A DNA stretch of 53,794 nt. Source: a virus. Taxonomy: Duplodnaviria > Heunggongvirae > Uroviricota > Caudoviricetes. Position 1 is the stretch's first letter. Every line of letters starts with the position of its first letter. Location: IMG/VR virus record IMGVR_UViG_2740892439_000006, positions 1 to 53,794 of that record, one strand, 5' to 3'. Both the position numbers and the translations under genes were made by a program. Of the stretch, positions 42-50,963 are shown piece after piece. The notes below the pieces were generated by a model. The model ran no database searches and had not been told where the DNA came from. It was given only the letters and a program-made list of their open reading frames with translations.

Positions 42-467
42 TTGTCCGGGAAGCTGTTAGCTCTATTAGCTAAAGCACCTACGGAATGGTTTAAGCCAGT
101 CGTTATCAATCCACACTTCCTGGATTACGGATCTGTTCGCACTCGTAACGAACTCAAAAACCTACTGGCGCATGGATTCATTCGACACCGTGCCGGGAAA
201 GGCTATCAGTTAGCGATTGCGCCAGAAGAGGCCGTGCGGCTATTCGCATATCGTGACAGCCAGACAAAAGCTCGGGTAATAGCTCAAATACTTCATAACG
301 GCAGCACCTATGCCCGCCAGTTTGGCGGCGACACGTCGCAGTTCTTGCGGGCGGTGCGATCGCTGGAGGCGCAAGGAATTATTGAAAGTTCCTGTCTTCC
401 TGTTCCTACCGTTCCACATATCAAACGTCGGGTTTACACCTTCACGCAGAGAGCTAAAAAACAATGA
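42..467 (+). CDS. hypothetical phage protein
   Basis: 141 aa ORF; stop overlaps start of next ORF (coupling). Confidence 0.4.
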   Translation: MSGKLLALLAKAPTEWFKPVVINPHFLDYGSVRTRNELKNLLAHGFIRHRAGKGYQLAIAPEEAVRLFAYRDSQTKARVIAQILHNGSTYARQFGGDTSQFLRAVRSLEAQGIIESSCLPVPTVPHIKRRVYTFTQRAKKQ

Positions 468-957
468 TTTACGTAAAAGTGAAACGCCTACATCTGGCAG
501 CAAAACTTCCAGCTTATGCCACCTCCGGATCGGCGGCGATGGATTTTGAGGCTGTTGAAATAAAACCATGCGTCGATAGCAATGGTGCAATTTCCTCAAG
601 CTGGTGGGTGTATACCGGACTGGCTATGGAGATCCCGCCCGGCTGGTGTCTGAAACTCTATCCGCGATCCGGATTGGGCTGCAAAAAACATACTCGCCTG
701 GCTAACTGCGTAGGAATTATCGACTCCGATTATCGCGGTGAAATCATGGCAAAACTGATTACTGATCCCGGCGGGGAAGGCGTTTGTCTCAAGCAGGAAT
801 GGCTGTCATGCAAGGAATTTTTGAGCGTGTTGAACAAGTCTCACTAGTCGAGGTTGAGGAACTCAACGAAACGGAACGTGGTGCTGGTGGCTTTGGTAGC
901 ACATCGGAAGGCCACTTTGAAATTAAGCGTTCACCGCTTCAGTACGAAAAGTTATAA
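464..957 (+). pseudogene. dut: dUTP diphosphatase (dUTPase), reading frame broken near 790-800
   Basis: N-part has dUTPase motifs (AYATSGSAAMD, RSGLG, GIIDSDYRGEI); C-terminal motif ERGAGGFGSTS continues in the minus-one frame (808..957); inserting one G in aagca->aaggca restores a single ORF. Confidence 0.6.
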
Positions 958-971
958 GCAGAGAAAAGACT

Positions 972-1649
972 ATGAATAACATGGCAACGAAAGAGCTTTT
1001 TAAGTTCCTTCCCAAATACAAAGCTCACAAAAACGTTAGTGCATCGAAAATCAAAAATGTTGTTATTTTCGGAGTAACTGATGCCCCACTTTGGGGCTGC
1101 ATCGAACTCGTTGAACCAAAAGGGGCAACAGTTTGTGTTGACGCAATGTTTTTACAAAAACACCGACCAAAAACTGGCGGGTATCTGATCGTTTATGAAA
1201 ACGGTTATCTGTTCTATGCCCCGGAGAAACCATTTGAGGAACGCTATGGCCTGGTTAACGACGCCTCCAAAAATGGAACCACGGTCATCATTACGGATGA
1301 CAACGGCGTGATGATTAATCTTACCGGGAGCGTAACTATTTCTGCTGGTGGCATCACCACCCAGCAAGAAGAAATCGACCTTGAAGCAGCCGACTTTTCT
1401 GACGCGCTGATGTGGCTGAAGGATGGCAAGAAAGTTGCTCGACGCGGGTGGAACGGCGAAAACCAATTCTGCTGGCTGGTTCCTGAAGGACAGTACCCGG
1501 CACGAATGGAAGCCATTAAGGGATATTTCCCCGGCGACCTCGTTCCGTATGGTGCTTATTTCGCCTTAAAAAATGCACAAGGTGTAGTTGTTCCGTGGGT
1601 TCCTTCTGTAGGCGACTTACTGGCATGTGACTGGTTTGTAGTGGAGTGA
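972..1649 (+). CDS. phage protein with C-terminal DUF2829-like (Tad2-like) domain
   Basis: C-terminus ...ALMWLKDGKKVARRGWNGEN...DLLACDWFVV matches remembered DUF2829 pattern; RBS gagaaaag upstream. Confidence 0.5.
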   Translation: MNNMATKELFKFLPKYKAHKNVSASKIKNVVIFGVTDAPLWGCIELVEPKGATVCVDAMFLQKHRPKTGGYLIVYENGYLFYAPEKPFEERYGLVNDASKNGTTVIITDDNGVMINLTGSVTISAGGITTQQEEIDLEAADFSDALMWLKDGKKVARRGWNGENQFCWLVPEGQYPARMEAIKGYFPGDLVPYGAYFALKNAQGVVVPWVPSVGDLLACDWFVVE

Positions 1650-1655
1650 TTTGAC

Positions 1656-2099
1656 ATGGAAAGCACCAAAACAATTCAATACCGCTTGCGTAATGGCCTG
1701 CTGGTGGCTGTTAACGCCGACATGTCACTGCCGTTTGACACGATTGAACGCACTATCATGACGTATCTCGGCTTTAATGAAGAGCTGAATGAAGAGCATG
1801 GCGTAGCTATATGGAGTGATGCAGACAGCGGCGTTCGTCGTTACATCACCGCCAGGGGCAAAGACTACTCTCTGGAAGAACTGTTTACCCTTGCGCAGTC
1901 TTTCGAATGTGTAGCATTAGACCTGTTTAATGATCCTGCTATAGCGCAACGACTTATACGCGAGCTTGGGCTATCCGTTACACCAATTATCTTTAAAAAT
2001 GGCAGCCTGACTGGCACATGGCGCGTAGAACGCATCTCAAACTACCTTCCATATAACCGACAGTTAAATGGAGTAATCTCCGGCGTTAATCAGCCGTAG
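1656..2099 (+). CDS. hypothetical phage protein
   Basis: 147 aa ORF, tight spacing with upstream gene. Confidence 0.4.
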   Translation: MESTKTIQYRLRNGLLVAVNADMSLPFDTIERTIMTYLGFNEELNEEHGVAIWSDADSGVRRYITARGKDYSLEELFTLAQSFECVALDLFNDPAIAQRLIRELGLSVTPIIFKNGSLTGTWRVERISNYLPYNRQLNGVISGVNQP

Positions 2100-2665: not shown

Positions 2666-3046
2666 CTACTCCGCGGAACCATACAATCTACGTAACGTGT
2701 CGGCAACAGAAGATACAGATATCTCTCCGGTCGCAGCCCCTACGGTAAGGTCTGCCAGTTCAGGTGAATCAAATACCTGCACCCCGTTACGGCGTAGAAA
2801 TAGCAGCGCACTGTTTAGCGCGGTACGCTTATTGGCATCATTGAATATATGCCCTCTCGCTGTAGCCACCAGGTAGGTGGCGGAGACTTCGAAAAGGTCG
2901 GTGATCTCTTCGTAGGCAACTCTGGCCTGAACTCTCCCGATAATGGCCTCTGCCCTACCCGGATCTGACATTCCCGGCAGGCCGCCGTAGCGGTTTATAT
3001 TCGCATCATGAAGCGCAATAAGTTCTTCCGGTGATATATGCCTCAT
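2666..3046 (-). CDS. doc: Doc toxin (Fic/Doc family kinase)
   Basis: 126 aa; [11 protein letters not shown] motif; matches P1 Doc as I recall it. Confidence 0.95.
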
Positions 3047-3267
3047 TATCGGTTAACCAGTTCCTTGTTGGTGGAATCCAGAGTGTCAAACAGAGATGCA
3101 AATTCGGCATCCAGCGCCGCTTTTTTGTAGGCTTCGAAAGTAGCCTTGCTGACAATTACTGCTGGCTCACGGCCTCTGCGGGTGATTTCAACCTCTTCCC
3201 CGGCTTCAACATTGTTGAGCACTTCAGAAAAGTTGCCGCGCGCGGTACGGAAGTTAATGGATTGCAT
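3046..3267 (-). CDS. phd: Phd antitoxin
   Basis: 73 aa from [12 protein letters not shown]...; matches P1 Phd as recalled; stop/start overlap with doc. Confidence 0.95.
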
Positions 3268-3339
3268 AAACACCTCGTGTACTCATTATGTGTACACAAT
3301 TATAAACCTCACAGGCATAAAGCACCAGCACTTTGCAGC

Positions 3340-5457: not shown

Positions 5458-5630
5458 CGTTTTGTTCTCCTGCGTTTCTTTGCTGCGCGCCGTGCAGCTG
5501 CAATACCGGTATGGCGGCGCTTTGGTGCCGGGATGATGTTGTCAGCCATCAGGACATGCGGCTTTGCAATTAGCGCAGAAGCCCAAAAACGAGTCGGATA
5601 CGGTAACAAGCCGATACATGCCACACGCAT
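5454..5630 (-). CDS. small basic protein
   Basis: 58 aa; strong RBS aaaggaggtgagta-ATG; start overlaps stop of upstream gene. Confidence 0.3.
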   Translation of the reverse strand: MRVACIGLLPYPTRFWASALIAKPHVLMADNIIPAPKRRHTGIAAARRAAKKRRRTKR

Positions 5631-6108
5631 TACTCACCTCCTTTGGCGTCAATATTTACAGCCTGGCAAGCCTCGTTGAGCACCCAGTCAACCGCGTCTT
5701 TCCATGCTCCGGTTTCAGCTGGCGGATTCTCACACTTTACCTGTTCATAGAAGCGTACAGCCTTAACCAGTCCGTCCGGCACTGCCTGTACCATCTGCGC
5801 CCTGACCCACGCCACCCGCGACGGTTCATATGGCACATGTTGTTCCTTTTTTCTTCATGGTAATGCCCATTACTCTCGTTAAATGGCAACACCTCATACA
5901 GCCCGGCACTTCTGAAATCAGCGTGTAATTGTTCCAGTGCCGCTTCGCTGGAGGTACCGATTGATGTGAGATAATCGAAAAGATTGGCGCATAAACCATA
6001 ATTTCGAGAAAACACCCCACCTGGTTTCGCCCCATTACTCAGCCACAAATCATAAGCAATATAAAACCCGTAAAGCTGTTTTCTGATATTTTCTTTGGTT
6101 TCTTGCAT
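5630..6108 (-). CDS. hypothetical protein, frame interrupted in an A6 run near 5848
   Basis: Two overlapping ORFs (5737..6108 and 5630..5836) join into one if the A-run is A7. Confidence 0.3.
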
Positions 6109-6763: not shown

Positions 6764-7241
6764 GCTCCTCTCCTTTGATGCGAATGCCAGCGGCGCGTGG
6801 CACATTAACTTCCACGATGCGCACAGTTGGTTTGTACATCTCAATCGCTGTCAGCCAGTCAGCTCCTGTCATGCGCTTTTCCGCATCGCCATTAGTCCAC
6901 TGAACCGGTACACCAATAGCCTTCATCGCAATTTCTATTTCCCCGGCAATGGCGCTTTTCCCGCAACCAGTAAAACCAGAGACAACGACAAGAACTTCGC
7001 CTTTGGCTGGTTTTATTTCCCGCGCCTCCACCTCTGCAATTCGGCACATAGCATCGATATTTGTGTCTTCCAGGCGTTTAACTTCATCCAATAATGCCAA
7101 CGCGATATCTGGCGAAAAGTGCTTCATAAAATCGTTAAGCGCATTAATTCGCTGATCGAAAGGCATTACAGGCGCTTCACCAGCAATTTTTGTTTTTTCA
7201 GCAATTTCACGAAGCTTTTGATAGTCAATTTTGTTTGTCAT
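6741..7241 (-). CDS. P-loop (Walker A) containing phage protein
   Basis: 166 aa; GFTGCGKS motif. Confidence 0.45.
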   Translation of the reverse strand: MTNKIDYQKLREIAEKTKIAGEAPVMPFDQRINALNDFMKHFSPDIALALLDEVKRLEDTNIDAMCRIAEVEAREIKPAKGEVLVVVSGFTGCGKSAIAGEIEIAMKAIGVPVQWTNGDAEKRMTGADWLTAIEMYKPTVRIVEVNVPRAAGIRIKGEEHANKTRR

Positions 7242-7414
7242 GCCACTACCTCTTCGAATTTCAACTCCAATTGGTCACCCCAGATTTCACATGATTCGGA
7301 ACACGAACCAGTATCAAACCGCTTGGCCTGCACCATCGCCTGATACAAATTTCTGTAGTCGCTGTCGGCATACATTCTGGCAATCCCGTCAAGCGTCAGG
7401 TGACCACGGTACAT
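7238..7414 (-). CDS. small coupled ORF
   Basis: 58 aa; start overlaps end of PAPS-reductase-like gene, stop overlaps ATG of next gene (ATGA). Confidence 0.3.
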   Translation of the reverse strand: MYRGHLTLDGIARMYADSDYRNLYQAMVQAKRFDTGSCSESCEIWGDQLELKFEEVVA

Positions 7415-8115
7415 AACGTCTTTACCTGTTCTGCGATGACCATCCTGACGTGTTTGCCTGTAACCAGTTCATTAAAAACCCGCATCAGACCTGGTTCGTC
7501 TTTACATGCAAGCCCCAGCTTTTGCGTTGACTTTTTGATGCAAAAAACACAGTTCCCGAGGTGCTCCGGGATTTGCAAATCAAAAGGTTGTTTTCGCCAC
7601 CACCGGATAACATCCGACTTATCAAAATCTGACAGCTCGGCAAGATACCGGACGCCCGGTTTCGGTTTCAGCCTACGGGGTTCGTCCGCACGAATACCCA
7701 GCCATGTGATGTAATTCCCTCGCCCAAAATGGTCATCGCAATATTTCGTGAAAGGGGTGAGTTTTAGCCTGTCAGTACAGAACGCGCCGCCGATGTATGG
7801 CGTACCGTACTTTTTAACCATGTCCATAAACGGTTTAAGCACCGGCATTCGCGTCTGAATATCCTTTGGTTCCCATTCCGTATAACCATTTGGCTGCCCA
7901 AGTTCTGGATTTATATCGACCTGCAACACCGTTAGCGGTACATTCCAGAACTTCACAACCTCACGAATAAAGCGATACGTCAGAGGATGTTCACAGCCGG
8001 TATCCATAAAAATGAAATGGACGCTAGCGCCAGCTTTTCGCTGTGCTTCCATCAGATGAACGAGATAAGCCGATGTTCGTCCACCTGAAAAGCTGACAAC
8101 TTGATGCATACTCAC
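7396..8115 (-). CDS. phosphoadenosine-phosphosulfate reductase-like (PP-loop ATPase) protein
   Basis: SFSGGRTS PP-loop motif near N-terminus; 239 aa. Confidence 0.7.
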   Translation of the reverse strand: MSMHQVVSFSGGRTSAYLVHLMEAQRKAGASVHFIFMDTGCEHPLTYRFIREVVKFWNVPLTVLQVDINPELGQPNGYTEWEPKDIQTRMPVLKPFMDMVKKYGTPYIGGAFCTDRLKLTPFTKYCDDHFGRGNYITWLGIRADEPRRLKPKPGVRYLAELSDFDKSDVIRWWRKQPFDLQIPEHLGNCVFCIKKSTQKLGLACKDEPGLMRVFNELVTGKHVRMVIAEQVKTLCTVVT

Positions 8116-14233: not shown

Positions 14234-14551
14234 TAAGTTGAATTGTAAATTTCTCCGATGTACATTCACTACCGATTGGCACACCGGTCAACTTTTTGAG
14301 ACAAACTGTTTAGTTTTTCGTATTATTGCCGCCGCTATACCTATGGCGGTGCAATATAGGTGGCTGAAAAGCCCCCGTTGACTCACGGTGTTCCAGCCTT
14401 TATTGCGCCGCCACCAGACCGTGGAACAGTCGATGGCGGCTCCGAAAGCAAGGAGTCACTACACTATGAACAGCTACTGTCTTTTCCCATCACTCGTTGT
14501 CCGCCACTCACGCGATAATCTGCATTCTTTACTCGCGCAGGGGGTGTCAAA

Positions 14552-18175: not shown

Positions 18176-18206
18176 AAGCAGGCCGCCATGTGCGGCCTTT
18201 TTTTTG
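18176..18206 (+). terminator. rho-independent terminator
   Basis: stem ggccgc/gcggcc followed by T8. Confidence 0.6.
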
Positions 18207-31535: not shown

Positions 31536-31548
31536 AGCACATCTTCTG

Positions 31549-31893: not shown

Positions 31894-31899
31894 ACCTCG

Positions 31900-32879
31900 T
31901 TAACCGATTGCTTTCAGGCCATGAACAAGAGCAAGTTGCGGGTCATCCGCCACGAAGAAACGGTCATCACGAATATTAACTTGCACGCGAATTGCATCTG
32001 CCACCAGCGGTGCGCCACCACCGATCACCATGACATGCGTATATCCTTTAAAGTCGCCAATCACATCAAGAACGCGGGTACGCAGACGGTCAATGCTTGC
32101 GGCAATGGCCTTTTTCACATCACCAATCGCTGATGGGTCATTGATATTGTCGTTCAGATAATCTTCATCGTGGCGGTTAATAATGAGCTGATCCACATTG
32201 TAATTTGACGTTTCGGTATTGGCCCTTGCAAGTGCTTGCCTTACTTCCCTGGTGACCAGTGATACACCAAGATTCGAATCGCCAAAAACACGGGAAACTG
32301 CCGTCATTTGTCCAGCGACCATTGAAACATCAAGGTAGTTCCACCCAAATCGACGATAAGAACAGAGTGGGCAGGGTTCAGATTGTCGCACAGGCTAATT
32401 CCCGCCGGGATAGACTCCGGGCGTACCGTAACTTTCTTAATAGTGAATACATTGCCTTTATTCAGCGTGACGGGGCGCATAAGACTGGCTTTCTTGCGCT
32501 CGATGTTATCGAGATTGTATTGCGCGTCGTCGTCGTAAAACTCTGCCAGAGGCAGCGTGACCACAATTTCTACTTCCTGCGGCTCAATACCGCTTGTCAG
32601 CAGGGCATGGTGAACAGCCAGGACGTTAAGCGGGCTGTATTGCCATTCCACATTATTCGTCGGCAGAACATCTGGCGATATCAAGTCGTATGAATACTTT
32701 TCGTCGTCAATGACATAGTTAAACGGCTTGCCCGCACCAAATGTTGCTGACCATCCGCGCTTAAAGCTGTTAGGGCTGATGTGAGTGCGAGTTTCCCCGT
32801 CGTGCTCCCACAGCATTTTGATATTGGTTGAACCATCATCGATAAAAATGCGCATCTTCTTGCTCCACTTCTGAGACAC
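31900..32879 (-). pseudogene. parM: ParM (StbA) actin-like segregation ATPase, frame broken after DLGGTTL
   Basis: Two ORFs (32304..32879 and 31900..32391) each match R1 ParM halves ([11 protein letters not shown]; GYTHVMVIGGGA); frame restored by ttgatg->ttggatg. Confidence 0.75.
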
Positions 32880-33060: not shown

Positions 33061-33121
33061 CTCCGTTTGAATGACGAAATAACAAAGTGATGACAATAGG
33101 AGGATAACCAGGAGGTGAAGA

Positions 33122-34212: not shown

Positions 34213-34267
34213 AAACACTACTTAGGCACACAATAGGATGTAAATTGGTACATATTTAACACCAAAA

Positions 34268-35353: not shown

Positions 35354-35369
35354 TTTGTCCCTTGTTTAC

Positions 35370-35762: not shown

Positions 35763-35777
35763 AACTCTAATGATTTG

Positions 35778-35808
35778 TGTTAGAAAACTAAAATTAAATC
35801 ACATAACA
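35778..35808. promoter_or_regulatory. operator-like site E (good left half, degenerate right half)
   Basis: gTGTTAGAAAACTAAAAT shares 17-bp core with site A; sits between divergent genes upstream of structural operon. Confidence 0.35.
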
Positions 35809-35919
35809 ACATGCGTGTTAATATATTTTATTTTACTAAGCCTATTGACTAAATCACAAAGTATGTATTGTTAGCACGTCAAAAGAACCTTCACGCCGCG
35901 CCCGAATTTAGGCTTAACC

Positions 35920-37617: not shown

Positions 37618-37764
37618 TGGTGGCGAACGTGTCGGTATCACCAACGTCACTTGACGTAGATGAAGGTGAAACTATCGCCGCGAACACTTCAAAGGCACAG
37701 AAAAAAACAAAGCAGAAGTAAGGCAAAAACACGCCCCTGAATAAGGGGCGTTCAGGAGAAAAGA

Positions 37765-38043
37765 ATGGCAAACATTCAAGTAACTATCACGCCATCTGAC
37801 GCAACAGACAAATCTTTCACTGTTGAGTCAGATCACCCTGAAATTGTCCAGGTTGATGGCACTACATGTACCGCTCTTAAGGCCGGGCAGGCAGTGCTGA
37901 CAATCAAAACAAATGACGGCAATAAAACCGCACAGTGCACAGTCACTGTTAGGGAGGCACCTAAAAGCGTAAGCGCCGTCAGTGTTGAACCAACTACGAA
38001 AGAAGTAACCGTAGGCGACAACTTCACGGTAAGCGAATCCTGA
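37765..38043 (+). CDS. bacterial Ig-like (Big_2) domain protein
   Basis: TALKAGQAVLTIKTNDGNKTAQCTVTV typical Big_2 signature. Confidence 0.55.
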   Translation: MANIQVTITPSDATDKSFTVESDHPEIVQVDGTTCTALKAGQAVLTIKTNDGNKTAQCTVTVREAPKSVSAVSVEPTTKEVTVGDNFTVSES

Positions 38044-38110
38044 TCAGAGGCTGCCCATTAACCGTGGGTAGCCTTGCCTCGTTCTCTCGCTTTAGAGGAT
38101 AAGAACCAGC

Positions 38111-39769
38111 ATGAATAAGATTAGTTTTTCGGTAGGGCAGGCAGCTGGCGTTGCTGTAATGTCAGTAAATGCTGACGCTACCCTCACCAATACCAGCGGT
38201 GGCGCATCCGTCTTTGCTGGGCTTGTAATATCGCGTCGTGGCGCACCGGGTAAGGTACTGAAAGTTGACGATACGACTTATCAAAGCGTATTAGGTTCAC
38301 CGATTCACCCTCGCCAGGGCGCGGCATTTGAACCATATCGCCACGTGGAGCGTGCAGTAAAAGGCGGCTCTGGATATGTCGTTCGAGTTTGCGCTAAAGA
38401 CATGAAGGTGCCGGGTATTTCTGTTTCCGTTGTGGGCAAAGCAAAAGCGGCAAAGGCGAGCAAAGAACTTTCCGTTGAACCTACTGAAACCACAGTAAAT
38501 CCAGGTGACACATTAAGCGTTGGTGTTGCTTCAACTGCAACGACTCAATCAGTGTCCTTCACACCCAAAGAGACGCCCCAGATTAAAGGTGAAGAGAAGG
38601 CATTATTCTTCATCAAAGATGGTGATGCATCTCAAAATCGCACGTTATCACTAACTCGCGATGATGAAGAAAGCGAACTCTTTACGCTGACGCTGAAAGA
38701 AAAACAAACCGATGGGTCCATTGAGGTGCTGGAAAGCCACCAAGTGTCTTTCAATCCAGAAGGCACTAACGACATGGGCCAACCAGCATGGATTCCGACA
38801 CTGCTTGAAAGCCAGTCCACTCGCATTGGTGCCGTACTGGCAGATAATGCAGAAGCATCCGCTGCTCAACTCATTTTTGAGGATGTAGCTTTTGAAGGTG
38901 GTACTGATGGAGATCTGTCCGAAATTGACACTGAAGACTATCTGGAAGCATTAAAGGTTCTCGAAGCTTCAGAGGTTAATTACACCGCATTGCTGTCACT
39001 GGGTTGTTATGACGCATCCGCCTTAGCCGCAATCAAAAAGCTGGCTGAAGATGTTCGCGTAGACATGTTCTATGACCTGAAGGGCAACCAGACACCTGAA
39101 AACGCTATTTCAGAAGCGAAAAGCCATAGTTTTGGCGGCTCACATCAACCAAGCCGTTACTACTTCCCGCTCTCCTGCCGAGATACTTTCACTGGAATGA
39201 ATGTCGTCTATGGCATTAGCTGCGACGCATTCGTAGCGAAAGCAAAAGGAGTGGCGCTGGTACCGGATGTTGGTGGTTGGCATTACGCACCGGCAGGTAT
39301 ATCACGCGCGATTATTGATCGACAGAACATTGCCCGAATTCCAAATATCGGTGCAGTTGATCGTGAAGCGTTCGTTCTTGCGCGCATTAATCCAGTTTCA
39401 GTTGCTGCTGACGGGTCCGTTTACATTGACGACTCTTTAACAACTTACAGCAAAAACAACTATCTGCGATTCCAGCATGTGTCTTCCTTGATGAACGCCA
39501 TCGCCAGAGATTTCTATGAAGTAGCTCAGGCGATTAAGCACGAACCGGATGGCATTACCAAAGAAACGCTAATGAAAGCAATGACTGAATTGCTTGACCG
39601 TTACGTTGCAGCCGGTGCGCTGGTTACTCCACGTGACAAGTCCCAGGGTGAAGATCCATATGTTGTTCAGGTTGTCCAAAAGGACATCGATCTGTGGGAA
39701 GTGTCCTGGTCTGTTTGTCCGACCGGTACAGCTCGCCGAATCGTCGGTAAGCCAATTCTGATGCGCTGA
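38111..39769 (+). CDS. contractile tail sheath protein
   Basis: 552 aa; C-terminal GWHYAPAGISRAII and LRFQHVSSLMNAIARDF resemble conserved sheath segments (T4 gp18 WMSPAGYNRG / VRRLFNM). Confidence 0.6.
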   Translation: MNKISFSVGQAAGVAVMSVNADATLTNTSGGASVFAGLVISRRGAPGKVLKVDDTTYQSVLGSPIHPRQGAAFEPYRHVERAVKGGSGYVVRVCAKDMKVPGISVSVVGKAKAAKASKELSVEPTETTVNPGDTLSVGVASTATTQSVSFTPKETPQIKGEEKALFFIKDGDASQNRTLSLTRDDEESELFTLTLKEKQTDGSIEVLESHQVSFNPEGTNDMGQPAWIPTLLESQSTRIGAVLADNAEASAAQLIFEDVAFEGGTDGDLSEIDTEDYLEALKVLEASEVNYTALLSLGCYDASALAAIKKLAEDVRVDMFYDLKGNQTPENAISEAKSHSFGGSHQPSRYYFPLSCRDTFTGMNVVYGISCDAFVAKAKGVALVPDVGGWHYAPAGISRAIIDRQNIARIPNIGAVDREAFVLARINPVSVAADGSVYIDDSLTTYSKNNYLRFQHVSSLMNAIARDFYEVAQAIKHEPDGITKETLMKAMTELLDRYVAAGALVTPRDKSQGEDPYVVQVVQKDIDLWEVSWSVCPTGTARRIVGKPILMR

Positions 39770-39806
39770 TTTATAACCCCCGCTAAATGATGCGGGGGAG
39801 AGAGGT

Positions 39807-40547
39807 TTGAATATGAAAAATTATACTGCTGATCCTTTTATGCGTGCGATTTTCGGTTCTGGCTGCTTTGAAAGCGGTGATAAATCCACGCAGGACAATA
39901 ATGATAACGCCATGCTGGAAAGCGCAGGACAGAAAGGAAAGGACACTCAACCAAAGCCCAAAGACGACATTGAAACCGCGATGATGGAAGCGGTTGAATC
40001 CCGTGCACAAGGTGATATGCGCAGCCTGGCAGCTTCCATGCTTGCTGGTTGGGTTGAAGATGGTGATCCGGAGGCTGACTCATTTGATGCATTAGCAATC
40101 ACTATGGCTGGCCTGGCTGATATCGATGAAGACACCGATTTCACCGATGAGCAAATCGATGCTTATAACGATGCTCTCGCAGCTCTTGCTGATGCAGCTG
40201 TTGCGCTTGGCGCTGATCAGGACGATGTAACCGAAATGATCGACGATGAAGATGACTCAGCTGCCGAACGTGTTTATGACGCTCTTTCCGAAAGCGACAC
40301 CGACATGATGGAAACAGCTATTGCCATTTACACCGTTGCTGGTGGTGATAGCGCAATGCTGGAAGCGGTACGTAAAAAAGTGGTTCGTGATGGCAAGGTT
40401 ACCATCATCCGTAAACGCCCGCGTCCTCGCCGCATGACGTCATTGCAAAAACAGGCGCTGAAAAAAGCACGCCGCAAAGCACATACATCCGTAGCGAATA
40501 TCAACCGCAAAAAATCAATGCGCATTCGCAAAAAACGCGGTTTGTAA
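39807..40547 (+). CDS. acidic protein with highly basic C-terminus
   Basis: 246 aa; D/E-rich body, R/K-rich tail. Confidence 0.4.
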   Translation: MNMKNYTADPFMRAIFGSGCFESGDKSTQDNNDNAMLESAGQKGKDTQPKPKDDIETAMMEAVESRAQGDMRSLAASMLAGWVEDGDPEADSFDALAITMAGLADIDEDTDFTDEQIDAYNDALAALADAAVALGADQDDVTEMIDDEDDSAAERVYDALSESDTDMMETAIAIYTVAGGDSAMLEAVRKKVVRDGKVTIIRKRPRPRRMTSLQKQALKKARRKAHTSVANINRKKSMRIRKKRGL

Positions 40548-40596
40548 GTGACATAGGCCGCCTGCAAAGGTGGCCTCTACCTGGGAGAAATAGCGT

Positions 40597-41187
40597 TTGA
40601 TTTGCGGCGCGATAATGCCTGACGGAATAAGTCCGTTAATGAAGGTTTATATCCTCTCTTCAGAGGATATGGTCGTCGGTTATATCGGTGAAGGATCTAC
40701 CGCAGAACTGTCATCAATGTGGCAATCACCATTTGAAAACCAGTCAGTAGGAGGTTTGCTTGGCGGTATTAGCGCTGCGGCTGGCTCTCTTGCAGATACG
40801 CTTCAGACCGCAACCGGCGTAACAACAAAAACCCTCTTCAACTCAATGCTTGTTTGGGAAGGTCAGCAACCGCCTGAATTTAATCTGGTAATTGATTTCA
40901 TGGCGACAACGAACGCGCAACTTGAAGTGAACGCAGCCATTACAGCATTGCTGAAGATGGAATCGCCGGAACTGAACAATGTAGCGCCATTCGGTCGTCG
41001 CCCGGAGACAGTAACGTTAAACATAGGTAGGAACATAGCCCTTACCGACGTTGTTATCAAAAGCGTGAGTTACCAACTGGACGCCCCGCGCACACCGGAA
41101 GGCTATTTCACTCATAACACGGTAACCCTGCAATGCAGCGGTAACACATCGATCAACCGTAGCAATATCTCATCTGTTTTTGTGTAG
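40597..41187 (+). CDS. tail tube-like protein (tentative)
   Basis: 196 aa track ORF between sheath and tube-like gene; true start uncertain. Confidence 0.35.
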   Translation: MICGAIMPDGISPLMKVYILSSEDMVVGYIGEGSTAELSSMWQSPFENQSVGGLLGGISAAAGSLADTLQTATGVTTKTLFNSMLVWEGQQPPEFNLVIDFMATTNAQLEVNAAITALLKMESPELNNVAPFGRRPETVTLNIGRNIALTDVVIKSVSYQLDAPRTPEGYFTHNTVTLQCSGNTSINRSNISSVFV

Positions 41188-41195
41188 GAGTATTT

Positions 41196-41687
41196 ATGTC
41201 CGGTTTTGCAAATACAAAAGCCGATATGGCCTTTCTAAAATCCCGGTTTAATAAAAACCTGGCTGCAGGCGAAAAACTTATTGGTTCTGAATATTGGATG
41301 ACCATTAAGGGTTACGAACATCTGTCTGTACTAGTTCGTACAGCTCAGTTACCAGAAATGACACGTGAAGATGTGGAGGATTACGCCCCTGGTGGCATGA
41401 AATTCAACCAGCACGGACCATTACGCAACTCTGGTGAATTTCAGGTCACATGCGCGGAAACTATCGAAGGCGCAGTTCTCGCCGCTGTAAAACAGATGGT
41501 ATACGGAAAAGAATATCTGGAAATTACCTTACAGGCGGCGGCTGAATCGAATAGCGGTAACCATAAAGGTCTGATCCGCACATATTTTCATTGCAAAGTG
41601 TATTCCGACGCCGTGGACTTCTCATCCGAAGACGTAACGGCGGTCGTTAAACCTTCCCTGCGCATTGTTTACAACTGGGCGGAATAA
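41196..41687 (+). CDS. tail tube protein (gp19-like)
   Basis: 163 aa; size and position downstream of sheath; GEFQVTCAET segment resembles T4 gp19 region. Confidence 0.45.
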   Translation: MSGFANTKADMAFLKSRFNKNLAAGEKLIGSEYWMTIKGYEHLSVLVRTAQLPEMTREDVEDYAPGGMKFNQHGPLRNSGEFQVTCAETIEGAVLAAVKQMVYGKEYLEITLQAAAESNSGNHKGLIRTYFHCKVYSDAVDFSSEDVTAVVKPSLRIVYNWAE

Positions 41688-41741
41688 TCCCTATCCCGCC
41701 CTTGTGGCGGGAACATCCTTGTTATTGAGTTGTAGGCAACA

Positions 41742-42140
41742 ATGACACCAATTGAATTATTAGAAAGCGTTAAAGAGCGATTTAATCCGCTGCTTGTGCG
41801 TGAAGAAGAAACGTTGAAAGCATTCCTGATCAAAGCTCTGACCACGTATCAGGACAGGGCAGGGGTAGTGAAAACGTTAAAACTTGAAAAAGCTGGTGGT
41901 ACTGCAATCCCGTTGCCAGAAGATTATCTCTCTCTGGTTCATGTTACCGACAACAACGGCTTGTTGGTCTATTCGGATGAATTATCCGGATTTATTGAAT
42001 TAGAGCTAACAGGTTCAGAACGCTGGCCTTTTCGAATGCTGTATCTGGTTAATCTACGCGACAGAGAGCTGGATGAATGGCAAGTGCTCCTGCAATCATT
42101 GGAATGCTGGAGGAATATCTGGAGGCGCTTATCAATGTAA
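41742..42140 (+). CDS. hypothetical protein (possible tail assembly chaperone, frame 0)
   Basis: 132 aa; overlaps next ORF by 64 bp in minus-one frame. Confidence 0.35.
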   Translation: MTPIELLESVKERFNPLLVREEETLKAFLIKALTTYQDRAGVVKTLKLEKAGGTAIPLPEDYLSLVHVTDNNGLLVYSDELSGFIELELTGSERWPFRMLYLVNLRDRELDEWQVLLQSLECWRNIWRRLSM

Positions 42141-42292
42141 GAAATGTCGCCCGGCAGCGTAGAGCGTCCATCGACGGGAAATTTGACTACTCCGATCTGC
42201 CCGATGAAGCCACGCTATATGCCCGCGTGCAGGAGATTGAGGAAAAAATGTCCTCAAACCGGGCCATTATTCCGGGGGCTACCATTTTTTAA
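42077..42292 (+). CDS. hypothetical protein (possible minus-one-frame extension)
   Basis: 71 aa; frame 2 relative to upstream ORF frame 0. Confidence 0.3.
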   Translation: MASAPAIIGMLEEYLEALINVRNVARQRRASIDGKFDYSDLPDEATLYARVQEIEEKMSSNRAIIPGATIF

Positions 42293-42307
42293 CGCTGGAG
42301 GCGCAGA

Positions 42308-43015
42308 GTGAGTATTTTCAGCAGCGTTGGTAGAACGTTGACCACCGCATTGTCATTTAACACGAAATCATTCACCAGCAACCTCATTAGCGACATTCTT
42401 GATAAAGCCATATCAGGCGGCGGGGTAAGCGGGAATTACAGTAGCGATATTGCCTACGGGAAAAATATTGTTGCTGCCGCTATGCGTATCCGTTACGCCC
42501 AGGGGTGGCAGTGGACCGTTGAAGTGGATGGCCTGAACGGCTTCGATATGTTCGTGAAGGATATCACCTACAGCAGTGGAAACATTGAGACAGAAAGCAA
42601 GGTGATCGGCAGCGTAGAATTCAGCAAGCCAACCTATGTTAGCGCCGGACCGGTCACTATGACCGTGAGGGATACCGAAGATGGCAAGATCATGGACTGG
42701 TTCAAAGAGCGTCGTTCTCGTGTAACAAATCCTGATGGAACAATAAACCTTCCTCCTGAATATCTGATGAAAATCCGTGTCTACCGGGTGACTCAGGACG
42801 GCGGAAAAGAACTGGAAGAAGAAATGCGCGTATTTCCTACGCAACTTGGGGAAATCACACGCTCACGTGATCAGGTGTCAGAGTTCTTGTCATACCCAAT
42901 CACTTTCCAGAAATACACATCCGCAGGCTCAGGTGTTTCTGCTTTGGTCAACGGTGCCGCTGGCATGGCTACAAGTGCGTTAAAGGGGGCTGTGAGTGGA
43001 GTGATCAAATTCTGA
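42308..43015 (+). CDS. hypothetical structural protein
   Basis: 235 aa; GTG start. Confidence 0.4.
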   Translation: MSIFSSVGRTLTTALSFNTKSFTSNLISDILDKAISGGGVSGNYSSDIAYGKNIVAAAMRIRYAQGWQWTVEVDGLNGFDMFVKDITYSSGNIETESKVIGSVEFSKPTYVSAGPVTMTVRDTEDGKIMDWFKERRSRVTNPDGTINLPPEYLMKIRVYRVTQDGGKELEEEMRVFPTQLGEITRSRDQVSEFLSYPITFQKYTSAGSGVSALVNGAAGMATSALKGAVSGVIKF

Positions 43016-43029
43016 ATAGCTTTAATTAT

Positions 43030-43400
43030 GTGTGCTGGAGGGTTGCTCATTTCCCGTCAGCACCCACGCCCTCAACGATAGCGGGTAGGGAAGGTAGCGC
43101 AATTTTGAGGGCATTTTTTACATCATCAATTCATCTGTAATGAAGGCATTCTTTACACATTTCAATAATATCAATCAGTTAACACAGTGAATGATAATAA
43201 AAAAGCGCAATAAGAATGCACGATACGCACGATATTGGTTGAGGGCGATTTTTACATAGTCCTTACATATCAATACGTTATATAAAAACACAACTTGCTA
43301 ATAACAAGATACATGCAATTAAGATGTAAAAATTGCCCTCAATTGCCGATCGTTAAGGGCAAATTCTACACCTTGAGAGGGGTGTAAAAATTGCCCTTAA
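43030..43400. repeat. incA-like iteron array downstream of repA
   Basis: Copies of tgagggca(a/t)ttttacatc in both orientations (around 43103, 43238, 43323, 43352, 43381). Confidence 0.6.
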
Positions 43401-45376: not shown

Positions 45377-48300
45377 ATGGATATCAGCCCGTTAGCGACG
45401 TTGAACAATTACCGCAATGGCGAGCACTCCATATGTCAAAAGCCCTGGAAGAAAAATACAAAGCTCAAGCCGGGAAACGTTGATCGCGCTGGTAAAAGAG
45501 AGGTTATTTTGAAAGAGAATAAAGACCGTATCGCAATAATTGACGCTATTCAGGAAGCGAGCACAAACGAACTTAAAGCTCTTGCTGAGGTAAAAGACGC
45601 CATTCTTTCTGGGGCAAGCACCATAACTCAACAGGACGAAAGGCAAGGCAGAGTTAGCAACAGACTATCACGCAGGCGTAAAGACTACGAGCAAAGTACA
45701 TCTGATAGCGTTAGAGATGTCCAAACTAACCCATATAAAAAACGTCTCCCTGCTAAAAAGGAAAGGGCACCGATAAACCAAACCGTGGACCGCTCTATCG
45801 TTGCAACGAACACACCAGAAAGTGTTCGCTCCGTGCAATCACGTCAGACCATCCGAAAACCGGACGGTTTTATACCGGTAGCTGCTAATTCAGCCCCTCT
45901 TGAACCACAATCCCCCCAAAGTCTAAAAGGCCCGCTGCGGGATAGTAGTGGACGTTTTGTATCCCAAAAAAGCAATGAGGATGTAGCCAGAAAAAAAGAA
46001 TTGCAGAACGCACGTAAAGCCGACGCAAAATTACAAGCTGGCTTTCTCAGAAAGCTAGGTTCCATTATGGGGGTAGATGGCAATCAGTCTTCCAGTGAAG
46101 AGTCTTTAACAAATGCAGCTGGTGTCGGTGCTGGTGGGCCGTTATGGATGGCGGCTCGTGGCATGTACGACATAACTAAAGAGATCACAGGTAAAGCAGA
46201 ATCTCTTAAAGAATGGGTAGAAAAGGGGAAAAAAGAAACATCAACCTCGAAAGCGATATCACCAGTAATTACTTATCCGGCGGTGGTGAATTCTCAAAAA
46301 GCAACATCTGCAAAAGCGTTCAATAACGCTGTTGAGACAAAATCTGCACAAGCAGTAGAAGAGCAAACCAAAATCCTTCAGACCAATGACAACAAAATAA
46401 TTGATGGTCTGGAAAATGTTTCTGACGAGATACTTAAGCTTCGGAAATCAGTGTCTTCTGGAAATAAGTTCGGATTAAGTGATCTCTGGAAAAATCGAGC
46501 AAGCAGAAGAAATAAAATCAATATTGGTGATCAGACGGGAAAAAATAAACGGAACAAATCGAAAAGGAAAGGCCGCAATCTTGGAAAAAAAGCACTCTCC
46601 GCTGGCGAAAAAGTTGCTGCCGGTAGCGCTGCGGCTGGCACTGGTGTCGGAGCAGCAAAAGTAGTTAAAAATAAGATCAGCAAACCCAAAGATGTAAGCA
46701 CTATCAGCGATACATCAAAGGGGATTGCAAAGGAAACAAAAAATACTGCTAAGGCCGTGAAGTCAGCTGGTGTTGTGGCTGAAGATGCCACCATTAAAAC
46801 CGGCGAAGCCATTGCAAAGAAAAAAACTGAATCTGTAGCCCTCAAAAGTGCTGCAAAAATAGGTGTTAAATCAGCAGCATCCACAGCGGCAAGAGCGGTC
46901 CCTATCATCGGTTCGCTGGCAATGGCTGGATATGACGCCATAGATGGTTACACAGATACAGAGGCGCAAAAGGCAGCCTTTGGTTTAAGTGACGATGATG
47001 CTGTATCCGAACAGCAAAAAACGGCTTACGCAACAGCTAATGTGCTCGATATGGGGGGCTTGGTGTCGGGCGCAACGAACTTGATAGGGAAAGGAATTTC
47101 TGCGCTAGGATTTGAAAGAGCAGGTGAAAAACTTCAGAATTTTGATACCGGAGATATTGCTCGTGGTGTTAACGGCGCGGTAGATATCACCAAATCTGTT
47201 TTTGGTAGCCTTAAGGATACATTTTTATCCACTGACGAAAACACGAAACAAGTAAAAAAAGCTGTTGAAGACGGCACCAAAAAAACTGTCGATGCGATTC
47301 ATTCTCTAGGTGAACAATTACAAGGTGGGCGTAATGGCGAGGATGGAGTTGGTGAGCACGGGTATACTTCTCCAACTGAATTTAGTGCACCTGCCAACAA
47401 CACCATTGCAGCGGATCTGAATATTGGCGGCAGCAACGCTAAAAACCGCAATTACCGAAATAATAATCTCGGCAATCTTGTTTTTGCCAACCAGGAAGGG
47501 GCGACGTTGGAATCGCCAAATGCAAAAGGTGAACAACGTTTTGCGCGATTTAACACGCCTGAAGAAGGGATCAGGGCACTGGCAAACCAGGTTTCCAGCT
47601 ATTACAACGGCACCAGTGCTGCAGCGGGATATCAGAAGTTACAGACGGTATCCAGCATCATTTCAAAATGGGCACCGCCAAATGAGAACAATACTAACCA
47701 ATATATTGATAACGTCAGTAAATATCTTGGTGTATCGCCTAATGAAAAAATAGATGTCAGCAACCCAGAGGTTATGACGCAATTAGTTCGTGCAATTGCG
47801 ACGAAAGAAGGCGGAAATCCGGCAGTTAATAATGAGTTCATTAAGAATGCACTTGGAGCATTTAACACAAACACTGGTCGATGGGAGGGACAATTCTCTG
47901 ACGAAACATTGGCGCGGATTAATAAAATTCAGAAAGAAAATGGTGGTCAGCTAATTGCCCGCGATTCGCAATATAGTGTTGGTCGCAAGGTAAAATATGC
48001 TAATGGAAAATCTCCAGCTCATCCAGTTTTGAATGCCGTTCCGACAGCAACACAACAGCCAATTGAGGTTGCACAACATGCCCAGGCAGTCAAAAAGCCA
48101 CAAAAAACAGGCAATCAATCGCAACCGATTAATCCAGAGAATGTTGATGTTAATACTGGCTCGCCATCAAGTCTGCTTGAGAGATTAATCGCTATAAATG
48201 ACAGCGGGGTAGGTAATTTATTTGGAGGTGCAGCTACCAGCCTTGCTGGTACAAGCCTTGGCCTGATTAAGGATTTTGCGTCGGCGACTTCGTTTGGTTC

Positions 48301-48790
48301 TATATCTTCGCTTTCCGAAAAAGCGAAAGGAATGGATCAGGCTCTTACTGAAAAGATATCCAGCTTAACCGGTAAATCTTTTGGATTTCAAAAAGCAAGC
48401 CAGGTAACTGATATAAGAGACGCTTTACAAAAAAGACCAAAAGCTGAACGCGATATGCCTTCAGTGGATCTTCTCTCCGGTGTTTCTTCGGCAAGTGAGA
48501 GTGAAAAAATCTCTGTAAACTCAAGGGGGATTCCAGTTTATGACAATGGATACAAGGTAATTGATGGTGAAGATAAGGGGGTGCTTGGCTCTTTGTTTGA
48601 CTCGTCATTAACAGGTCTGAAACGTATTAGCTCTGCTGTGTTACCTGCAATTGGCGATAACGTTTCACAACTTATTGGTGGGGTAGATGGCACAGGCATT
48701 GTTAATGATTTGGTTTATCAGGCTACTGGGCAGAATTCAACAATTGCCAGGCTATTAGCCCGCTTACCAGGAGCGCCGGTAGTTGGCTGA
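45377..48790 (+). CDS. large virion protein (tape-measure / Sit-like)
   Basis: 1137 aa, Ala/Gly/Lys-rich low-complexity centre; position after tube/chaperone-like genes. Confidence 0.45.
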   Translation: MDISPLATLNNYRNGEHSICQKPWKKNTKLKPGNVDRAGKREVILKENKDRIAIIDAIQEASTNELKALAEVKDAILSGASTITQQDERQGRVSNRLSRRRKDYEQSTSDSVRDVQTNPYKKRLPAKKERAPINQTVDRSIVATNTPESVRSVQSRQTIRKPDGFIPVAANSAPLEPQSPQSLKGPLRDSSGRFVSQKSNEDVARKKELQNARKADAKLQAGFLRKLGSIMGVDGNQSSSEESLTNAAGVGAGGPLWMAARGMYDITKEITGKAESLKEWVEKGKKETSTSKAISPVITYPAVVNSQKATSAKAFNNAVETKSAQAVEEQTKILQTNDNKIIDGLENVSDEILKLRKSVSSGNKFGLSDLWKNRASRRNKINIGDQTGKNKRNKSKRKGRNLGKKALSAGEKVAAGSAAAGTGVGAAKVVKNKISKPKDVSTISDTSKGIAKETKNTAKAVKSAGVVAEDATIKTGEAIAKKKTESVALKSAAKIGVKSAASTAARAVPIIGSLAMAGYDAIDGYTDTEAQKAAFGLSDDDAVSEQQKTAYATANVLDMGGLVSGATNLIGKGISALGFERAGEKLQNFDTGDIARGVNGAVDITKSVFGSLKDTFLSTDENTKQVKKAVEDGTKKTVDAIHSLGEQLQGGRNGEDGVGEHGYTSPTEFSAPANNTIAADLNIGGSNAKNRNYRNNNLGNLVFANQEGATLESPNAKGEQRFARFNTPEEGIRALANQVSSYYNGTSAAAGYQKLQTVSSIISKWAPPNENNTNQYIDNVSKYLGVSPNEKIDVSNPEVMTQLVRAIATKEGGNPAVNNEFIKNALGAFNTNTGRWEGQFSDETLARINKIQKENGGQLIARDSQYSVGRKVKYANGKSPAHPVLNAVPTATQQPIEVAQHAQAVKKPQKTGNQSQPINPENVDVNTGSPSSLLERLIAINDSGVGNLFGGAATSLAGTSLGLIKDFASATSFGSISSLSEKAKGMDQALTEKISSLTGKSFGFQKASQVTDIRDALQKRPKAERDMPSVDLLSGVSSASESEKISVNSRGIPVYDNGYKVIDGEDKGVLGSLFDSSLTGLKRISSAVLPAIGDNVSQLIGGVDGTGIVNDLVYQATGQNSTIARLLARLPGAPVVG

Positions 48791-48873
48791 ATAATGGTAT
48801 TCAACAAACCGCAGATAGCATTAGAGGTATATCAAACGAAGCCAATAATGCCATATTTGGCTCTGCGTCAGCC

Positions 48874-49158
48874 GTGCAAGAACCTTTTCTTGCTTTGCCA
48901 CCACAGCTTCCTACTGTAACAGATCTCGCACGAAGCGGAATAAGACAACCATTAACTACTGACACTATAAATAACGATCCTGCTATGTTGAAGGCGCTGG
49001 ATAACATCTGCTCTATCCTGAACGATCTTCTGAATGTGAACAAGAACAATACAAAAGGCGATCCGGATAAGGTTGTCAAAACATCGCAGCCGCAACCGCG
49101 ACCACGTGCTAGCACAACTATTAATGACCCGTCGCTGGATGCTCTGCTTGAGGATTAA
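48874..49158 (+). CDS. possible minus-one-frame C-terminal continuation of the large virion protein
   Basis: Frame 1 is open from 48721 through 49158 overlapping the end of the frame-2 ORF; no RBS before the GTG start. Confidence 0.3.
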   Translation: MQEPFLALPPQLPTVTDLARSGIRQPLTTDTINNDPAMLKALDNICSILNDLLNVNKNNTKGDPDKVVKTSQPQPRPRASTTINDPSLDALLED

Positions 49159-49163
49159 TACAG

Positions 49164-49538
49164 ATGCTTTATGAAATAGACGCAAGACTTCAAACGAATG
49201 AGAGCGGTGTCATTATTGCAGAAGGAAGTACCGCAGCATGGATGGCCCGACTTGACGAGTGGCTACGAACCCCTGAAGGGAGTGTTTATGGTTTACCCTC
49301 TTGGGGGAATCCAATGGAAGAATTTAAGCATGAACCATTCGGCTCTGAAACTTCGCACATAGTTGAAGTGGCTATTGAAGGGAGAATGATGAAAAAACTA
49401 CGACAAGACTTGCCAGGTTTGGATGTGCAGGGGATTCGTTGCACATCAATTTCTGAAGATTCTTTATTAATTAGTTTTTATGCGAAAGGTGGGAGCATGG
49501 ATATTGTTATGCAGAAATCAAGTGGGGTGGGCGCGTGA
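49164..49538 (+). CDS. small baseplate protein (gpW/gp25-like, tentative)
   Basis: 124 aa, RBS, coupled to following baseplate gene. Confidence 0.35.
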   Translation: MLYEIDARLQTNESGVIIAEGSTAAWMARLDEWLRTPEGSVYGLPSWGNPMEEFKHEPFGSETSHIVEVAIEGRMMKKLRQDLPGLDVQGIRCTSISEDSLLISFYAKGGSMDIVMQKSSGVGA

Positions 49539-50963
49539 CGATTACAGAATTACTGGACAAATTTAATGCCAAGTTAAATGAAAACACATGGTGGTCACGA
49601 TTTGTAAATAGTCAGTTTGTGCAGATGCACGCTATATTCGGATCACAGCTTATTTATATTGCCCGTACATTTGCAAGCCGCGGCCTCACTGAGGGACTTA
49701 TTTCAACGGCTACGCGCCGCTCAAGTATTTTAGCGGTTGCTGAAGACCGTAGCTACGTAGGGCGATTTGTTAGTGCTTCATACGGAACAACGTCTATAAC
49801 CAATAAAACTGATCGGGATATTACGTTACCAGCCGGGGCTGAATTGCTTGCCAATGACCAAACACCTTTGGCAATTATTAACAGTGTTGTAATTCCTGCT
49901 GGAGGAACTGTTTCTGGCGTAGAACTAAACAGCATGAAGCTGTTAGCGTTACATTTGATATTGAGAAGGAAACTTTATTTCTGACATTGTTGCTTTCCAG
50001 AGAGTTAACAAAAGAAGTCTCTAGCCTTGATGTTTATGTTATTACAGATGGCGTAGAAGAAAAATGGACATATAACCCATTATTTAGAATGTCCAGAGAC
50101 AAGAGTAAGCACTATTCATTGGCATATAAACCTACAGAACAACTTGGAGTCAAGTTTGGTGATGGTTCTATGGGTATGATGCCTCCAGCAGGCTGTCAGG
50201 TTCGAATCGATGTTATGGCTAGCTTGGCGACTATACTTTGGCTGAAGGACAAAAGTTAGAACCGGCTGGAAATATCGCTCAATATGTGGAGTCACTAGAG
50301 TTTAAAATTGATTCGATCATTACCGGTGGTAGTGGTATGGAAACTACAGAAGAAACTCGAAATCGTGCTCAGTATTATGTTGCATACGATGAACAAGTGG
50401 TATGGGGCGGTGATTATCGCCAATTCATTCAGAATGTTGTTCATGGAACTTCATGGTTGAACGTTTGGGGCGAAGCGTTACAAGAGAAAATAACTGGGTT
50501 TGACGTTCGAAACATCAACAAAATTTTCTTTTGCGGACATAAGCCGGGTGTAAGCCAGGCTCAGCTAAAATCAGAAATACTGAAAGCTCTAGAGAATGTT
50601 CCAAATGAGTTGAACAAGCGGTTCGAGTATGTAGATACAAATGAACAGCCATTTACTATAAATTTTATAGGTATTGCACGTAAAAATGTTCTGATAGACG
50701 ATGCTCAAAATGCTATTAAAGCAGCGTTGGAAGATAATTTTGGCCGTGATTCGTCATCATTCAGTTTATTACTACAGAGTGATGATGATTCCCAGCAATG
50801 TTATGCACAGGTAAAAGTTAAAGATATTTGGCGAGTAATAGAGTCTCTGGATATGTTTCTGTCTTACGACATAACAATACAAAATATGAAAGATGCTGTT
50901 TACTTTAATGACTTCATTTATCTTGACGTGAAATCTTCAACGTTCAGCATTTCTTACCCGTAA
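49535..50963 (+). pseudogene. baseplate J-like protein split into three consecutive ORFs by two minus-one frame changes
   Basis: ORFs 49535..49984, 49987..50259, 50238..50963 in frames 2,1,0 with no RBS for the second and third. Confidence 0.4.

Follow-up and report, generated by a model that had tools for sequence, protein, structure and literature searches.

Single-base frame breaks in a D6-like phage-plasmid contig most probably stem from consensus errors in an Ion Torrent draft

The DNA considered here, a stretch of 53,794 nucleotides from a member of the Caudoviricetes that will be termed the window, contains a series of genes that appear intact except for a change of reading frame within them, and it raises the question of whether these breaks are properties of the element or of the way in which its sequence was obtained. 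A first-pass annotation, made from the letters alone, listed seven breaks in six genes or gene pairs, considered their number unusual, and suggested either that the element is decaying or that the assembly carries systematic single-base deletions.

The window was compared with a panel of 38 related loci, and a one-base indel absent from this panel was defined as private. The comparison with close relatives shows that all seven listed breaks exist, each being a single base that is missing relative to all of the relatives, and the annotation was correct in reading them as changes in the same direction that are mended by adding one base, since all seven are deletions. The 41742/42077 pair, which it had included only as a possibility, is a real break in a single gene. 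One position requires correction: the break in the gene at 5630-6108 had been placed at an A6/T6 run near 5848, but this run is intact and identical to that of a relative, and the base that has been lost is a G at 5822. Four further private one-base indels, at 2093, 7443, 35910, and 18198, were found beyond those previously listed. No locus of the panel carries any of the indels, which are as follows.

793..794, plus strand: missing C in dut; CC(A/T)GG in relatives, CAGG in the window; the extra C is present in 9 of 9 relatives
2093..2095, plus strand: missing C, CCC to CC; CCC in 9 of 9 relatives; near the middle of a 258-aa isaA-like gene (1656-2431)
5822..5824, minus strand: missing G, GGG to GG on the plus strand; 5 of 5 relatives; 159-aa gene at 5630-6108
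7443..7445, minus strand: missing C, CCC to CC on the plus strand; 8 of 8 relatives; PAPS-reductase-family gene at 7238-8110
18198..18205, plus strand: extra T, T8 as against T7 in 13 of 13 relatives; non-coding; the sole private insertion
32333..32335, minus strand: missing G, GGG to GG on the plus strand; 23 of 23 relatives; parM (31900-32855)
35910..35912, plus strand: missing G, GGG to GG; 23 of 23 relatives; non-coding, 10 nt upstream of the capsid start (35920)
42086..42087, plus strand: missing C, CC to C; 22 of 22 relatives; tail-region gene
48749..48751, plus strand: missing G, GGG to GG; 12 of 12 relatives; structural transglycosylase
49922..49924, plus strand: missing A, AAA to AA; 12 of 12 relatives; first break of a 476-aa baseplate gene (49535-50963)
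50222..50223, plus strand: missing C, CC to C; 12 of 12 relatives; second break of the same baseplate gene

Addition of the ten missing bases restores eight full-length open reading frames. The dut gene, which is split in the window into frames at 464-847 and 784-957, becomes a 164-aa ORF of dUTPase length; the ORF of the isaA-like gene is restored by repair at 2093, and the 5630-6108 gene, when repaired at 5822, extends over 160 codons from stop to stop. The product of the PAPS-reductase-family gene has 290 residues in relatives, and the Pfam domain PF01507 is found on the intact homologue. Repair at 32333 restores parM, which encodes 318 residues in relatives. The deletion at 42086 divides a gene that encodes one 183-aa protein in relatives into frames at 41742-42140 and 42077-42292, and the structural transglycosylase, a protein of 1260 residues, ends early at 1137 residues (45377-48790), its true end being near 49158. 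A GC-rich hairpin (GGCCGCCATGTGCGGCC) precedes the T8 run at 18198, and the start of mat is about 28 nt downstream of this run. In exact protein look-ups, no record was found of the shortened products of the dut, 2093, 5822, and 42086 genes or of the 1137-aa fragment; this is weak evidence that other assemblies are free of the deletions, since such products could also be hidden by gene calling or by annotation as pseudogenes. Two other indels, at 31892 and 34263, distinguish the window from its closest PLSDB plasmid (CP058021.1) and were considered as additional breaks, but they are intergenic polymorphisms common to other plasmids.

That all of the breaks run in one direction could suggest that they are recoding sites, at which programmed ribosomal frameshifting or transcriptional slippage generates the full-length proteins, and programmed frameshifting does occur in tailed phages, in the gene for the tail chaperone. 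The probability of this explanation is close to negligible. Each of the eight genes is one unbroken ORF in every relative, including plasmids that are 99.9% identical, and an interrupted arrangement of these genes is conserved in none of the 38 loci. Sites such as CAAGCAGG, TCAAGGTAG, and AGTGCTCC have neither a slippery heptamer nor a long A/T run, and two of the private indels are non-coding.

The view that the number of breaks is unusual is borne out by the comparison. Private one-base indels number 11 in the window and private substitutions 8, as compared with an indel:substitution count of 16:182 (a ratio of 0.09) in the pooled close relatives (Fisher p = 5.6e-7), and in relatives with few private substitutions the number of private indels is 0. 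It should be noted that an initial panel of 13 loci gave 97 "private" substitutions, a number that fell to 8 with 38 loci; the unremarkable indel:substitution ratio obtained with the smaller panel was discarded, most of the 97 substitutions being mosaic patches common to relatives that it had not sampled. All 11 private indels are located in homopolymers (chance 2e-4), deletions outnumber insertions by 10 to 1 (p = 0.012), a C or G has been removed in 9 of the 10 deletions (p = 0.004), and the true run length is 2-3 bases at every deletion. The density of private indels is one per 4.9 kb, and the proportion that is coding (9 of 11) matches the coding fraction of the window, 90% (p = 0.30); there is therefore no sign of selection. 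Near-identical plasmids differ from the window by 6 (L015) and 5 (L017) substitutions over 20.5 kb and by 14 over 17.2 kb (L038); every one of the ten deletions is absent from them, and the eight genes are all unbroken. In these three loci and L036, which are 99.88-99.95% identical to the window, the extra T is absent as well as the ten deletions.

Apart from the breaks, the element is a D6-like (P1-related) phage-plasmid of an ordinary kind and, in all probability, intact. It is collinear with phage D6 and D6-like plasmids, with nucleotide identities of 96.7-99.9%: Escherichia phage D6 (MF356679) is 96.7% identical across 77% of the first 25 kb of the window, and the D6-like plasmid pRHB04-C06_3 (CP058021.1) is 99.3% identical to positions 29000-53794. 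The genes common to the window and D6-like elements include dut, phd/doc, a humD-like gene, ref, icd/ant, mat, higBA, rdgC, dam, and glnS, a gene for a ParA-like protein, parMR, and those for the capsid, sheath, RepB, transglycosylase, baseplate, and tail fibre. The window differs from these elements only in the one-base indels and in the usual mosaic accessory modules, and is a contig of 53.8 kb, whereas a whole D6-like element is about 90 kb.

The window is the whole of contig JUDV01000028.1 (53,794 nucleotides) of Escherichia coli RCE01 (GCA_001630855.1), of which locus L035 is 100% identical to positions 9537-30730 with 0 gaps. In PLSDB, INPHARED, and the complete E. coli genomes of RefSeq, the best match to the window was 99.3%, the source being a draft WGS contig, and it was exact-protein look-ups that led to this contig. 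The RCE01 project (JUDV00000000) was sequenced with an Ion Torrent PGM, using a 318 chip and 200-bp kit, and the genome is a meta-assembly, made with MIRA 4.0, of PGM reads of six colonies from a single Crohn's-disease patient; the RCE01 authors state that artificial frameshifts remain and that their corrector lowered them only about 2.5-fold (PMC5517970). In PGM data, high-frequency indels are present at about one per 1000-2000 bp, 82-87% of them being unique to one run, and are typically A/T insertions or C/G deletions; the strand-asymmetric subclass, 82% of which is in homopolymers of length 2-3, consists mostly of C/G deletions and causes frameshifts in assemblies (Bragg et al. 2013, PLoS Comput Biol, PMC3623719). 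With the 2.5-fold reduction, 11-22 such indels are expected per 53.8 kb, and 11 were observed. The window resembles this error class in having C/G deletions and an A/T insertion in homopolymers, with the deletions in runs of 2-3 bases, and in that the sites are largely irreproducible between assemblies; its placement in the strand-asymmetric subclass is by signature alone, from a comparison of consensus sequence.

These features suggest a mechanism in which the PGM mis-measures homopolymer length and also makes high-frequency indel errors, most reads at such a site being without a C or G of a 2-3-base run; a majority-rule consensus would then take over the deletion, which would be seen by gene callers as a frameshift. 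The long A/T runs of the window, 82 runs of at least 6 bases, are almost unaffected. This sparing is unlike the classic under-calling of long homopolymers, but fits the high-frequency-indel class and a homopolymer corrector that had already been applied. Errors of the type made by nanopore basecalling at Dcm sites (CCWGG) were also considered and rejected; only two sites, those in dut and at 48749, touch a CCWGG sequence, and the platform is Ion Torrent.

A second assembly of the element is available in the Logan contigs of SRR1599274, which have 0 substitutions relative to the window across 14.8 kb; by its sequence, SRR1599274 would be one of the RCE01 PGM runs. Five of the deletions are testable in these contigs. 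Those at 35910, 48749, and 49922 are absent, whereas the parM deletion at 32333 and the baseplate deletion at 50222 are present, with the same 183-aa shortened ParM and the same 241-aa baseplate fragment as in the window, and the Logan assembly has a private GGG to GG deletion of its own at 52534. The recurrence of exactly two deletions, with three others restored, raises the possibility that the pattern is mostly artefact but that the deletions at 32333 and 50222 are real; a ParA-like ATPase is also encoded and could in part stand in for ParM. If this were the case, the RCE01 element, from a Crohn's-disease gut isolate, would be a D6-like phage-plasmid that had recently been disabled: its ParM segregation gene would be dead and its baseplate defective, so that it could not form a baseplate or use ParM, and it would be kept only by the ParA-like system and toxin-antitoxin modules. 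This is unlikely. The two assemblies are not independent: both probably go back to one isolate and one platform, and SRR1599274 probably belongs to the pool of PGM reads behind the window. Recurrence across runs more often than chance was reported for a minority of the high-frequency indel sites in PGM data (PMC3623719). In context, a C/G run of 2-3 bases, the two deletions match the sites that are not reproduced, and the relatives are intact at both positions (23 of 23 at 32333 and 12 of 12 at 50222). In addition, less than one real indel is expected in the window, from 8 private substitutions and a natural ratio of about 0.09 that is itself dominated by non-coding sites. We infer that the shared deletions are systematic errors that recur, and not real mutations.

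The same observations bear on the first alternative of the annotation, that most or even all ten deletions are genuine, pseudogene-forming mutations in an element that decays without selection, perhaps through -1 mutagenesis of the Pol IV/SOS type in G:C runs. Untargeted mutagenesis that depends on DinB yields -1 frameshifts in runs of G:C, and the strong G:C-run bias of the deletions, together with the many genes affected in proportion to coding content, would be in keeping with such a process. However, decay is expected to leave mixed lesions and an excess of substitutions, but only the 8 private substitutions were found, none of them a nonsense change, and the window, which is collinear with its relatives, has no IS element, larger deletion, or rearrangement. 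Near-identical plasmids are intact, the second assembly is without the deletion at three of the five testable sites and has another one elsewhere, and the platform and the caveat of the RCE01 authors explain the pattern fully. Decay is therefore very improbable, and of the two original alternatives it is systematic assembly deletion that stands, favored by the PGM/MIRA source and the error signature.

Thus, assembly error is favored because of the platform, the signature of the indels, the intact state of near-identical plasmids, the disagreement of the second assembly, and the lack of other marks of decay. That the breaks reflect errors in the consensus of an Ion Torrent PGM draft, and not biology, is given a probability of about 0.93. 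A similar condition is seen in another member of the same plasmid family, a putative long-read-only assembly (GCA_900450295.1, UGFE01000007.1; locus L022), which has 1 private substitution and 7 private one-base indels in 12.7 kb, and in which ParM, GlnS, and the capsid protein are split in gene calls. The indels in this locus run both ways, with 4 extra and 3 missing bases, whereas those of the window are nearly all deletions.

The frame breaks have no biological significance for the element, and what they offer in practice is a warning and a reusable procedure. This quick diagnostic, which worked well, is to set the number of private one-base indels beside that of private substitutions, both judged against close relatives, to examine the homopolymer context and direction of the indels, and then to trace the contig to its sequencing platform. 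Ion Torrent drafts and uncorrected long-read drafts seed public databases with false pseudogenes; here, eight phage-plasmid genes, including parM, dut, and three virion genes, look broken, and surveys of the integrity of prophages or plasmids may take such records for "decaying" or "defective" elements.

Alignment of the window to 13, and then to 38, related loci, with every indel recorded, shows that all seven frame breaks listed in the first-pass annotation are real, each corresponding to one base missing from the window relative to the related loci. The break in the 5630-6108 gene had been placed in an A6/T6 run at 5848, but this run is the same as in the relative and the actual site is 5822. 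Four more private one-base indels, meaning indels absent from all other loci of the comparison panel, are also present. The eleven sites are as follows.

Breaks in the first-pass annotation, located by alignment to relatives:
After 793, dut: C of CC missing
5822, 5630-6108 gene: G of GGG missing
32333, parM: G of GGG missing
42086, 41742/42077 gene: C of CC missing
48749, transglycosylase gene: G of GGG missing
49922, baseplate gene, first break: A of AAA missing
50222, baseplate gene, second break: C of CC missing
Sites outside that annotation:
2093, isaA-like gene (258 aa): C of CCC missing
7443, PAPS-reductase gene: C of CCC missing
35910, 10 nt upstream of the capsid start: G of GGG missing
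18198, just after a terminator-like hairpin: T8 in the window, T7 in 13/13 relatives

The proposal that the genes can be mended by adding bases holds, in that ten inserted bases return all eight affected genes to the lengths found in relatives (164, 258, 159, 290, 318, 183, 1260, and 476 aa). Two further candidates seen against the closest plasmid, at 31892 and 34263, are shared intergenic polymorphisms.

In megablast searches of collections of phages, plasmids, and E. coli, phage D6 matches the first 25 kb at 96.7% identity across 77% of its length, and plasmid pRHB04-C06_3 (CP058021.1) matches 29000-53794 at 99.3% identity; these matches identify the window as part of a D6-like phage-plasmid of E. 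coli and Salmonella that is related to P1. The gene map, taken from the annotation of relatives, comprises dut, phd/doc, a humD-like S24 peptidase, PAPS reductase, ref, icd/ant (Rha), mat, and higBA, then tail and baseplate genes, rdgC, dam, glnS, a ParA-like ATPase, parR/parM, capsid, sheath, and RepB, and finally a 1260-aa structural transglycosylase, a 476-aa baseplate protein, and the tail fibre. The addiction modules are phd/doc (2666-3273) and higBA (21771-22482). Two adjoining partition systems, one ParA-like (an AAA ATPase of 213 aa in relatives, with a small ORF downstream) and one parR/parM, occupy 30620-32855 on the minus strand. The glnS gene (28410-30071, minus strand) encodes an intact, full-length glutaminyl-tRNA synthetase of 553 aa, and phage D6 likewise has glnS (orf62). 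Position 1 is inside a gene downstream of a cre-like recombinase, and position 53794 is inside the tail-fibre gene, beside the invertible tail-fibre segment of relatives; the remaining ∼40% of the ∼90-kb element (terminase, portal, head genes, lysis genes, and C1-type repressor) is on other draft contigs.

The first-pass annotation left a choice between a decaying element and systematic single-base deletions in the assembly, and it is the second that is sustained, the first being unsupported: we consider, with a probability of about 0.93, that the pattern is artefactual, produced in the assembly by Ion Torrent errors of the homopolymer and high frequency indel types. Counted against all 38 loci, private one-base indels in the window number 11 and private substitutions only 8. 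When the same count was made for every panel member, relatives with few private substitutions each had zero private one-base indels, and close relatives pooled had 16 indels versus 182 substitutions (Fisher p = 5.6e-7 against the window). All 11 events alter the length of a homopolymer (chance 2e-4), the true run length is 2-3 for 10/10 deletions, the lost base is C or G in nine of the ten (p = 0.004), and deletions outnumber insertions 10:1 (p = 0.012). Since 9/11 indels are in coding sequence, which makes up 90% of the window, there is no sign of selection against them.

The region 9537-30730 is identical to a locus of GCA_001630855.1, contig JUDV01000028.1, and the window is the whole of this contig. 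The accession JUDV00000000 belongs to E. coli RCE01, which came from a patient with Crohn's disease. Reads from six colonies, generated on an Ion Torrent PGM (318 chip, 200-bp kit), were meta-assembled with MIRA 4.0; the authors acknowledge remaining artificial frameshifts, and their HomoHomo corrector cut artificial indels by a factor of ∼2.5 (Rakitina et al., BMC Genomics 2017, PMC5517970). High frequency indel errors of the PGM occur about once per 1000-2000 bp, are found in one run only in 82-87% of cases, are mainly A/T insertions or C/G deletions, and give frameshifts in assemblies; in a strand-asymmetric subset, 82% affect homopolymers of two or three bases, with C and G deletions dominant (Bragg et al. 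2013, PMC3623719). The window matches this profile on each count, its deletions being mainly of C/G and in runs of 2-3 and its one insertion a T, and its density is 1 indel per 4.9 kb, where 11-22 per 53.8 kb are expected after 2.5-fold reduction.

Two Logan contigs from run SRR1599274, L014 (46820-52808) and L041 (30075-38854), have 0 substitutions relative to the window over 14.8 kb. In the L014 stretch, 26 mismatches separate the window from the nearest plasmid, and the Logan contigs therefore represent the same element; the run is probably one of the RCE01 PGM libraries. The bases missing from the window at 35910, 48749, and 49922 are present in the Logan contigs, which have a deletion of their own at 52534 (GG for the GGG of the window and all relatives). 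The two assemblies of this one element differ only at one-base homopolymer sites, a result that run-specific sequencing errors produce. The deletions in parM (32333) and the baseplate gene (50222) recur in both assemblies, and at least one may be genuine, but this is unlikely: the Logan assembly probably shares its platform and read pool with the window, a subset of PGM indel sites is known to recur between runs (Bragg et al., PMC3623719), and 8 private substitutions predict <1 real indel.

Near-identical relatives argue against decay. An ENA metagenome scaffold (L015, L032, L038) and GCA_006777695.1 (L017) have 5-6 substitutions relative to the window over 20.5 kb, the L038 stretch has 14 over 17.2 kb, and GCA_001749285.1 (L036) has 8 over 21.2 kb; in these relatives the eight genes are all intact, and neither the extra T nor a single one of the ten deletions is present. 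The window is otherwise collinear with them, free of IS elements, larger deletions, and rearrangements, and its 8 private substitutions introduce no stop codon. Programmed frameshifting at the breaks is excluded, because the ORFs are uninterrupted in every relative and the break sites lack a slippery motif.

Other loci have private indels of their own. L032/L038 (ERZ28572952 scaffold_33) has two one-base deletions, at window 14367-14370 and 15848-15852, one of which splits a Rha-family antirepressor gene into 209- and 98-aa products (308-313 aa elsewhere). L036 (MIWQ01000032.1), 99.95% identical to the window, has an extra A at 28359, giving A7 where the window and 20 other loci have A6; the site is just past the point at which the dam-like methylase ORF (27399-28361) ends. 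The D6-like element L022 (GCA_900450295.1, UGFE01000007.1; aligned to 27531-43042) has the same artefact diagnostic, with seven private one-base indels, in both directions, versus 1 private substitution in 12.7 kb, and split gene calls for ParM, GlnS, capsid, and methylase.

It should be recognized that private counts hinge strongly on the reference panel, the private substitutions of the window numbering 97 with 13 loci and 8 with 38. A substitution cluster in glnS (29430-29709) was private relative to the first 13-locus panel. Patches at 19397-20433 and 15282-15561, dense relative to most plasmids, vanish once closer relatives are added, and reflect the recombinational mosaicism typical of the family.
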